Origin: Hormiphora californensis
Lineage: Eukaryota; Animalia; Ctenophora
Length of the DNA stretch: 64,000 nt
Direction: 5' to 3'
Assembly: GCA_020137815.1 (NCBI GenBank)
Contig: CM035350.1
Location: forward strand, 5,456,001 to 5,520,000
Part shown: positions 28,201 to 31,200 of the stretch, piece by piece
How the letters are laid out: every line of letters begins with the position of its first letter
How positions within the stretch are numbered: position 1 is the first letter of the stretch
Notes under the pieces: generated by a model
What the model was told of the DNA's origin: nothing
The model's database searches: none
What the model saw: only the letters and a program-made list of their open reading frames with translations
Position numbers and translations under genes: made by a program

Positions 28201-31200
28201 GTTACCAGGGAAGCCAACCTGGTCTGCACGTGCAAACACCTGAGGATTCAGATTGACTGATGAAACTAGTTGTGTTTTATTAACCCCTCGTCTTACTTCT
28301 TCACATACACACTACCTCGAGCTCGGACTCTCTTCCTCTTCTATATATATATATATATACCCTGCTAACTTAGATAACCCGCCAGTCCCACTGGCGCGCT
28401 GTCAATATACAGCCAGTCCAGCGGCAGATTATTTCCCACTGGCTGGCTGTTTATTATTAACTCCTATGTTACATTCAAAGTGTGTGTAAATGATCAGTTC
28501 TTACTGAAATACAGAGGGAACACTGTTTGCAAGAGTTACACACTGCATTGGAGAGAAAGAAACAACACATTCCGTCAATTTCTCTCTCTTTATCTCCCCT
28601 TTTGTTTCACTATCTCAATTCCTCTGTGTTATGTCTGGCATGCCCCATATCTTGTTATTTCTTTCTCTCTCTCCTTAGTAACTGTTACCAAACAATATAC
28701 ACTCAATTGAGAGATGTTTTTGACTGTTTCTCAGTTCTCTTTGTGTGTTTTGATTAGTGTTCTCTCTCTTGTTAGTGTGTAATACTTGAAACAAACAACT
28801 AAAGCAGGGTATATAACCCATAAACTCTGACCAATGGCACGTTATTGGTTTAAACCCCTCCGGCTCTCCCTCGGCTACGCCTCGGGATCGTCGTCGTGAT
28901 TTAAACCAGTTTATCCGCCACTGGCGGATAAACTACAGCTACCTTCTCCCAGCGGCGCGCTGGGAGAAAGGTATCTGAAATAACGTGCCAGTGGCCAGAG
29001 TTTATGCCTCATATATATTATATATATCTATATTGTTCATAATGTGTTCATAATGTGTTCGGAGACTTTGATCCCCCCTCTCTCTTCCTAGGAGTTGTAT
29101 GATCATGGTCTGCCCCTAGTTCTACAACTAGGCTGTGACAGCAATACAGTGGTCAGGGAACTCTACCGAACATTGTCCCTTCAACTTGTCCATTGGCACA
29201 GCAGTGGTGATACACAGGCCTATATCCTATCTCACATCTTGGTATATATACCCCTCGAATTCTTCTAGGTCGTACTGCTTCGGCAGTGCATATACTAAAA
29301 TTGGAACGATACAGAGAAGATTAGCATGGCCCCTGCGCAAGGATGACACGCAAATTCGTGAAGCGTTCCAAATTTTTTGATTTCATTTTAAATTTCTCTT
29401 TTTACACAAATTCTGGTAATTCGAACGGTCATTTCCGGGTATATTTCTATTTCCGCAGCCATATTTCGTGTTTTGTCAACACTGAGGTACCGTGTTCGAA
29501 TCTCGAAAGTGTTAACATTTAAAAAGTTTTTAAAACACTTATTATTTACGATATAGGTTGATTAAAAAAGTAATTAAATCTTTTCATAATGGAGAATTGC
29601 TATGCACGGCAGAAAATAAGCTAATAAATAAGTTAAATTTCGCGGGTTTTACGGCCCGCGCGACACGCCATTTTCTCAGTTGAGATGAAAACCCACTGCA
29701 TCTAGCGCGGTTTTAGTGCGCGCCGCACATGTTACCAGCCAACTGCAGATCTTGCTTGTCTTGTTTTTAGAACCCAACAACCCTTCCCATTTTTTTATAC
29801 TGTAAAACTAGAAATTTTCGTGAGATTTTTATTTTCGCTCTTTATTTTTGGCTGGAAAATCCGCGAAAATTAATTCCGCGAAAATATTTTGGACGATTTT
29901 TACAGAAAGCTCGTGCAAGTTATTTCAGGATGACACATTTTTTACTTTTAGTACTAAGTCAACGACAATCGGTTCATCAGATCAGAAATTGTAATTGCTC
30001 ACATTTCATTGGTCTACGCCAAGCAGGTCTAGTGTCTCATGGCAATGATGACTGCACTCTTGGCGTAATTAGACAATAAACTAGGACCGTGAAATGGGGG
30101 TAGCAGTGGGATTAGCGAAAATTAAAATCGCGAAAATAGTAAATTTTGATCGAATCGCGAAAATTAATTGCCTCGAAAATATCTAGTTTTACAGTAGTCT
30201 GATTTTAAACAACTGTCGTTTTTTAGAGTTTTCAAATTTCTTTAAATGACCGTAAGTCCGGTTCCTGATGAGATAGAGACTTGAAATTTGGAGGTTACGA
30301 AGATCTTGCTAAGTTCTTCCGAACCTCTAAATTTCAAGTCTCTATCTTATCAGGAATCGGAGATATGACAAATTTTGTTATTTCAGGGGTGCGACAGTTT
30401 CAAAAAATCCGACTTTATACTTACGTATCAACTGTTATCACTCATACATCCTAATTAAAGATGATTTAAGAAAGGGCCGGTATTGCTGTCCACAGCGACA
30501 TGTTAACTTTCCCAACATTAACAGTTTCTCTCCCATTTCCAACAGTTTCTCCCTCGCAGGATGGTATAGAACAAGCAGAGAATGCCGAGTTGCGGCTGTT
30601 TTGTGGGGAATGTATGCATGAGTTCTTACAGTGGTCCATCAAGCACACCTCAGGGGACACCGCTGTTAGGTGAGGGTTGGTTTGGATCCATTGCAATTCC
30701 TATTCTCGCTCCGCGAATATGTGAGGGTTGGTAGCATTAGATCTTTTAGAGGCCCAAAGATGACATAAGACACATATAATAATGTAGCTCTTGTCAATCC
30801 TCTGAAAGTATGGCTAACACTGCATTTTGTTTCTTAAAAAGAGCGAGCATGCTCCGTGAGGGTTCATATCAGACATGAAACTTTCGATTGTGAGAGAGTT
30901 CTAAATATAAACGGTAGTTCAATAATTGCATGACATTTCTTCAGGACAGTATTCAAGAAACTACTCTACCTTTGGGACCACTCCAAATTGTCTAAACAGC
31001 AGGCTGCAACCACTGCATTCAACACATTTTACCGGACATTCAGGTAGAACTCCTTCAATATTATCAATTGTTTGATGTAAGCTTCAGACAATGTATTGAA
31101 GATGAGATAACTTTCGATGACAAGCAGTCAAATTTGTGGCTTTTGATAATGAAACTTGACAGCTCATGATCAATAATGCCCCAGCAAAGTTAAAATTCTC

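Follow-up and report, generated by a model that had tools for sequence, protein, structure and literature searches.

The analysed stretch of Hormiphora californensis DNA (hereafter the window) comprises 64,000 nucleotides and contains, on its forward strand, exons of the DNA-repair gene PRKDC (DNA-PKcs) and a U6 snRNA gene nested in one of the introns (Table 1). The exon that precedes U6 matches residues 960-997 of human DNA-PKcs and the following exon matches residues 1015-1044; the two matched stretches are separated by 12 residues, the same length as in the relatives P0003 and P0004. The first of these exons ends in ...DTQAYILSHIL in phase 0, as had been claimed, and has 50 open codons. The identity and phase of the following exon (DGIEQ...) were also anticipated correctly, but its start is at 30560 and not at 30561. 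The splice junction of the host gene is predicted to join 29241 to 30560.

The U6 gene is the only Rfam match in the window. It was identified at 29272-29377 (+) with a score of 115 bits, against a gathering score of 44, and covers positions 1-105 of the 105 in model RF00026. All 7 pairs of the 5' stem-loop are formed and a T6 run begins at +102. The first base of U6 is intron base 31, 30 nt past the predicted PRKDC donor and on the same strand. The original prediction of an intact U6 gene 30 nt into a phase-0 PRKDC intron is thus borne out, the gene by the full-length Rfam match and the exon and donor by homology.

Table 1. Positions of the features around the U6 gene, numbered from the first base of the window.
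Feature	Position	Strand	Remarks
PRKDC (DNA-PKcs) coding exon	29092..29241	+	50 codons, phase 0 at both ends, AG acceptor
Candidate exonic upstream promoter element (weak lead)	29204..29227 (-68 to -45; core 29209-29222)	+	match in the P0003 intron
Predicted 5' splice donor GTATATATA and TATA box from 29243 (-29)	29242..29250	+	homology, match to U1 consensus
Spacer from TATA to U6 start	29251..29271	+	kept in Pleurobrachia bachei
U6 snRNA gene	29272..29378	+	7-bp 5' stem; T6 run as Pol III terminator; stretch like an A box, with 1 mismatch, at +22
Downstream block	29431..29535	+	common to a second species and a probable paralogous locus
Candidate B box TGTTCGAATCT, +222	29493..29503	+	context like tRNA variable loop and T arm (29485-29506)
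Second block	29609..29652	+	common to the paralogous locus; resembles subterminal repeats of the nearby MITE (pair I3)
Next PRKDC exon (DGIEQ...)	30560..30669	+	phase 0

The search with the exon preceding U6 gave 10 matches, several of which are short ORFs that read through the donor into the intron. One match, P0002 of Pleurobrachia bachei, is 98% identical in the exon, and another P. bachei model shares 90% identity with a long ORF of the window, which marks the source as a Pleurobrachia-like comb jelly. The exons of two distant relatives, represented by the read-through ORFs P0003 (with P0012) and P0005, are 51% and 47% identical to that of the window; these ORFs, deposited in ENA, likely come from ctenophores, and were placed by the tree without firmness. 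Searches with longer proteins returned one P. bachei model or nothing, the profile search added only two intron-less proteins, and a metagenome scan with the exon peptide gave 478 pattern matches with none confirmed.

The donor GT at 29242 opens directly into a TATA box, TATATATA, which starts at 29243, that is at -29 relative to U6, and the claim that the donor doubles as a TATA box is upheld. The pattern TATAWAWR occurs at 42 sites on the forward strand of the window, giving P ~0.003 for one site in a given 5-nt slot, and TA runs are over-represented in this DNA (GTATATATA was seen 6 times with 0.35 expected). Among the 7 GT sites in 29150-29271, the one at 29242 has the best match (7/11) to the U1 consensus, and it is the last in-frame GT ahead of a stop. 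In P0003, P0004, P0005 and P0007, read-through ORFs of other organisms, the first codon past this exon end is likewise Val, and so begins with GT. It had also been proposed that U6 itself would recognise this donor, which is true, but holds for every major-class intron and is not special to this one.

A true donor elsewhere, for instance at 29207 with a further exon, would leave the TATA box merely intronic. The donor at 29242 is predicted by homology of its junction and has no G at +5, a feature shared by two of the three neighbouring donors inspected (GTATTA and GTAGAA). The earlier site at 29207, which had been named as a point that might overturn the prediction, is in phase 1 with 4/11 U1 matches, against phase 0 and 7/11 at 29242, and the final residues of the exon are kept up to the same GT in P0003, P0004 and P0005. 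Use of another donor is therefore very improbable.

Since the read-through ORFs continue past the donor, their last codons could be placed on the window. For P0003 and P0012, the final 18 codons are best accommodated at the start of U6, where 52 of 54 bases are possible, the next-best place on either strand allowing 39/54. The last 10 codons of P0005 also fit best at the U6 start (26/30, next best 24/30). The tail of P. bachei P0002 is best placed at 29242, with 23 of 27 bases, the best in the window, and the 30-nt spacing is kept there. P0004 and P0007 end 10-11 codons into the intron and so are silent on U6. As the same intron carries the U6 5' end in the two distant relatives, the nesting is old, and U6 is, as judged from these encoded ends, kept in one PRKDC intron across three lineages. 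Retention of the arrangement in relatives, a check proposed at the outset, was thus found both in P. bachei, which keeps the spacer, and in the two distant ORFs, which have U6 in the same intron.

The position of U6 within the intron differs among these lineages. The distance from donor to U6 is 30 nt in the window and 97 and 114 nt in the two distant relatives, where U6 starts at intron base 98 and 115, so that 67-84 nt of upstream intron can be absent with U6 intact. A perfect TATA at exactly -29 is encodable in P0003, which 15 of 3000 random peptides allow at a fixed offset; in P. bachei the best TATA at -29 has at least 1 mismatch, and in P0005 a TATA is not encodable, every position between -36 and -23 requiring at least 3 mismatches. 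Among these sequences, TATA and donor were observed to overlap only in the Pleurobrachia-like lineage, the two distant lineages having a longer spacing. The simplest history would be a shortening of the spacer in Pleurobrachia, a direction of change that we infer: the three lineages are unrooted in the trees of the 50-residue exon (P0001, the non-homologous P0008-10 and the near-duplicates P0012 and P0015 were left out). Within the spacer, 29256-29271 is a pyrimidine run with AG right before U6 and resembles a 3' splice site. P0002 and P0005 can also encode a motif of GAATT type at -15, which does not beat its null (315/2000).

The same ORFs bear on whether this U6 is alive. A silent copy, recently dead, with another locus supplying U6, would fit the probable second locus described below. 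This is improbable: the full-length 115-bit match comes with a terminator, and the same intron is kept in lineages 47-51% identical in the exon. Moreover, the codons force a change on both sides of U6 stem pair 6-13 in P0003 and of pair 5-14 in P0005 with pairing retained, and such compensatory changes point to a living gene.

The alternative offered with the original prediction, release of U6 from the spliced PRKDC intron in the manner of intronic snoRNAs, agrees with its intronic position, its orientation on the host strand and the long time over which the host is kept. U6 is nevertheless a Pol III product in yeast and humans (PMC5855946). Processing from the intron is unlikely in the extreme, given that a T6 terminator is present, that two lineages have a TATA at -29 and that U6 lies at varying distances from the donor.

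The promoter of this U6 can be sought upstream or downstream of the gene. The upstream proposal was that one stretch serves as code, splice site and Pol III promoter. The donor TATA would then be occupied by TFIIIB and an element within codons 38-46 by SNAPc, either without further elements or in combination with the downstream B box. A PSE with a TATA is the animal default, and the TATA box lies exactly at -29 here and can be perfect there in P0003. A free local search first gave 29204-29227 with its P0003 match, for which none of 300 nulls was as good. On codon-wise rescoring, the window from -68 to -45 matches the P0003 intron from -58 to -35 with 14.3 bits, reached by 33/3000 random segments and 44/1000 codon shuffles (p ~0.01-0.04), or by 19/3000 and 33/1000, respectively, when shifts are limited to 15 nt. 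Of 22 positions of the P0003 motif, the P. bachei codons could supply 20, and the changed residue at -54 is among those that fit.

Against this, the P0003 match is shifted by 10 nt and is one of two comparisons, the other being P0005, which has no match (1125/3000 random segments are as good). Within 6-nt shifts, the -72 to -46 region of neither relative resembles that of the window, and P0003 and P0005 share no upstream motif with each other (213/300 nulls as good). The sole amino-acid change relative to P. bachei in the exon falls at -54, inside the candidate, and the element would have to originate inside codons. In both distant relatives the zone from -31 to -70 is intronic. Of the proposed triple role, the overlap of donor and TATA therefore stands, while a PSE in codons is a weak lead; an exonic element as the driver of U6 is a possible but doubtful reading. 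A look-alike of the plant USE at 29229-29239 (9/11 to RTCCCACATCG, by eye) was rejected, as it lies at -43 to -33 and not at -70 (PMC9845283).

Downstream of U6, about 115 nt past the terminator, lies the candidate B box, with 1 mismatch to the B-box consensus. Its surroundings at 29485-29506 were likened by eye to a tRNA variable loop and T arm. The strict core GTTCGANYC occurs twice in 128 kb (both strands), one of these being at +223 on the U6 strand. In 20000 local shuffles the strict motif was reached 141 times (0.7%), a medium one 442 times (2.2%) and a loose one 941 times (4.7%); the loose motif is not enriched in the window (15 seen, 14.4 expected). The A-box-like candidate at +22 (another is at +56, and the gap from A to B is 188 nt) is within conserved U6 sequence and is therefore uninformative. 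The spacer between TATA and U6 has no T7 stretch, its longest T run being of 2 at most.

The downstream flank was compared with contigs from 4 of 18 runs (X5, X7, X8 and X13) aligned to 29381-29760. The B box is covered by 12 contigs, 5 from X7, 3 from X8 and 4 from X5, and X13 does not reach it; X7 and X8 are one sample, so that the 12 contigs represent two samples, organisms A and B, both of them close relatives. In all 12, no change is listed at 29490-29499 or 29502-29505, in a list of which one row was unseen and which leaves aside the contig ends. Position 29501 differs from the window in 12/12 contigs and 29500 in 10/12; these are the two degenerate positions of the B box. The run 29490-29499 is the longest unchanged one within 29457-29525 and, outside the box, 18 of 58 sites vary, which gives a modest P ~0.07 for 7 unchanged core sites. 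Conservation of the B box relative to its flanks may be taken as modestly supportive, not decisive.

The contigs also revealed a probable second locus in both organisms, which shares 29444-29529 and 29609-29652 and diverges around them. One organism-B contig passes the 5' end of the aligned stretch toward U6, and the contigs of the second locus start 87-89 nt upstream in both organisms, about where the 3' end of U6 would fall. These break points suggest that the second locus carries another U6 gene. In X5, three contigs begin at 29485 and one ends at 29513, which would imply a node of ~30 nt, centred on the B box and common to the loci. Contig depth sums, a rough measure, suggest few loci for the downstream block. 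One X5 contig of 897 nt has a depth of 308; since this length would presumably take in the MITE at 29798-30196, the MITE accounts for the depth better than a high-copy SINE does.

Other identities of the downstream block were considered. A separate RNA gene was rejected, as the best Rfam E value is 5.4, there is no tRNA, the fold z is ~0 and a T4 run lies inside. A tRNA gene or tRNA-derived SINE at 29440-29515 was also rejected, with no cloverleaf and no high copy number; ARAGORN and Rfam identified no tRNA at the block, the window yielded no second copy of it, and a metagenome scan with its motif gave 0 matches. In view of its tRNA-like context, the B box may derive from a tRNA remnant that was co-opted, or else be left over by chance from the decay of a tRNA or of a SINE head.

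The best explanation for the whole is that Pol III transcribes U6 from a yeast-type promoter formed by the TATA box, a weak internal A box and the downstream B box, a reading that we consider evenly poised between right and wrong. Besides the B box itself, the variable distance from donor to U6, the poor TATA of P0005 and the compensatory stem changes speak for it. TFIIIC on the B box at +222 would recruit TFIIIB to the TATA at -29; Pol III would transcribe U6 independently of the host and stop at the T6 run, and the same nine bases would be a TBP site in DNA and a 5' splice site in the PRKDC pre-mRNA. Both the expression of U6 and the use of TFIIIC are steps that we infer. As the B box lies at the position known from yeast SNR6, an exonic or upstream promoter element would be unnecessary, and with a promoter driven from downstream, the coincidence of the TATA with the predicted donor would be accounted for: once U6 was freed from upstream sequence, the spacer could shrink until the TATA became the donor. 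Comb jellies are one of the earliest-branching animal lineages. The wider proposal that they make U6 from a yeast-type TFIIIC promoter, not from SNAPc and a PSE, and that the U6 of the PRKDC intron lost upstream spacer in Pleurobrachia until TATA and donor were one, is advanced tentatively, at somewhat less than an even chance.

Several points weigh against the B-box reading. The loose B motif is not rare and the conservation of the core sites reaches only the P given above. The distant relatives are represented by peptides alone, so the B box is seen only in close ones. The A box is uninformative and the T7 stretch is missing; the exonic stretch also matches the upstream intron of P0003 weakly, and animal U6 genes, including that of Trichoplax, have a PSE (PMC5855946; for Trichoplax, PMC2655684).

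The closest known system is SNR6 of Saccharomyces cerevisiae. Its TATA at -30, internal A block and B block beyond the terminator are given in PMC5855946, where the B block is described as essential and the TATA as helping without being required; its A-to-B gap is 202 bp (PMC9136082). The window gene is alike in its TATA at about -30, weak A-box-like stretch at about +22 and B box past the terminator, with a gap of 188 nt compared with 202 bp. It is unlike SNR6 in belonging to an animal, in being nested in a Pol II intron, in having its TATA as the predicted donor and in lacking the T7 stretch. The human U6 promoter is of type 3, with a PSE bound by SNAPc and a TATA (PMC5855946). With the animal type 3 promoter the window gene shares the TATA at -29, the G start and the T-run terminator; however, its PSE zone falls in codons, and type 3 genes are without A or B block.

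Two further systems are related in part. In trypanosomes, U6 is driven by A and B boxes that belong to an adjacent tRNA or tRNA-like sequence. The window gene also has a B box in a tRNA-like context beside U6, but this box is downstream and on the same strand, and a tRNA 5' half is not recognisable there. Elsewhere, too, independent small-RNA genes transcribed by Pol III are nested in introns of Pol II genes; unlike these, the window U6 has kept its host intron through a long stretch of evolution, and its core promoter overlaps the donor. The parts each have precedent, since fungi have U6 promoters of the yeast type and introns are known to host Pol III genes. The literature search, most subscription journals and supplements being outside its range, found no published study of a ctenophore U6 promoter or of U6 nested in PRKDC, and none on ctenophore SNAPc.

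Either reading would be unusual. Should the B box drive U6, an animal would use a promoter of fungal type for this gene. That would have a bearing on the time at which Pol III promoters of the SNAPc type were fixed in animals, and on the design of guide-RNA vectors with a U6 promoter for comb jellies. Should the exonic element be the driver, codons would have given rise to a Pol III promoter after the loss of its intronic counterpart. Under either reading the nine bases would be both TBP site and predicted 5' splice site, and U6 has remained in a single PRKDC intron while the host exon diverged to about 50% identity between lineages.

The surroundings of the gene contain repeats and further ORFs. 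Inside the U6 intron are the MITE mentioned above (29798-30196), which is TA-flanked with 23-nt terminal inverted repeats, and a 105-nt palindrome (30257-30361), to which other sequences in the window are related. The preceding intron, upstream of the exon, contains a reverse-transcriptase/endonuclease-type ORF of 432 aa (26188-28240, +), presumably Penelope-like, whose 3' part is repeated there in inverted orientation. At 16181-18518 a unit of 467 bp is repeated in tandem, in five copies that are 96% alike, and degenerate arrays of palindromic GCGCTTTAAA-type units were identified at 33262-34489, 36337-36855 and 37927-38515. Two other ORFs lie within the PRKDC span: an intronless one of 368 aa on the opposite strand (41450-42556, -), which we take to be GPCR-like, and an open non-LTR retrotransposon-like one of 1236 aa (54935-58645, +). 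The long exon at 60864-62006 is found twice in tandem in P. bachei P0001 (residues 1-373 and 379-746), either as an assembly artefact or as a true duplication. Finally, exons of an OTU-type deubiquitinase, apparently TRABID/ZRANB1-like, are found at ~5000-15000 (-), divergent from PRKDC.
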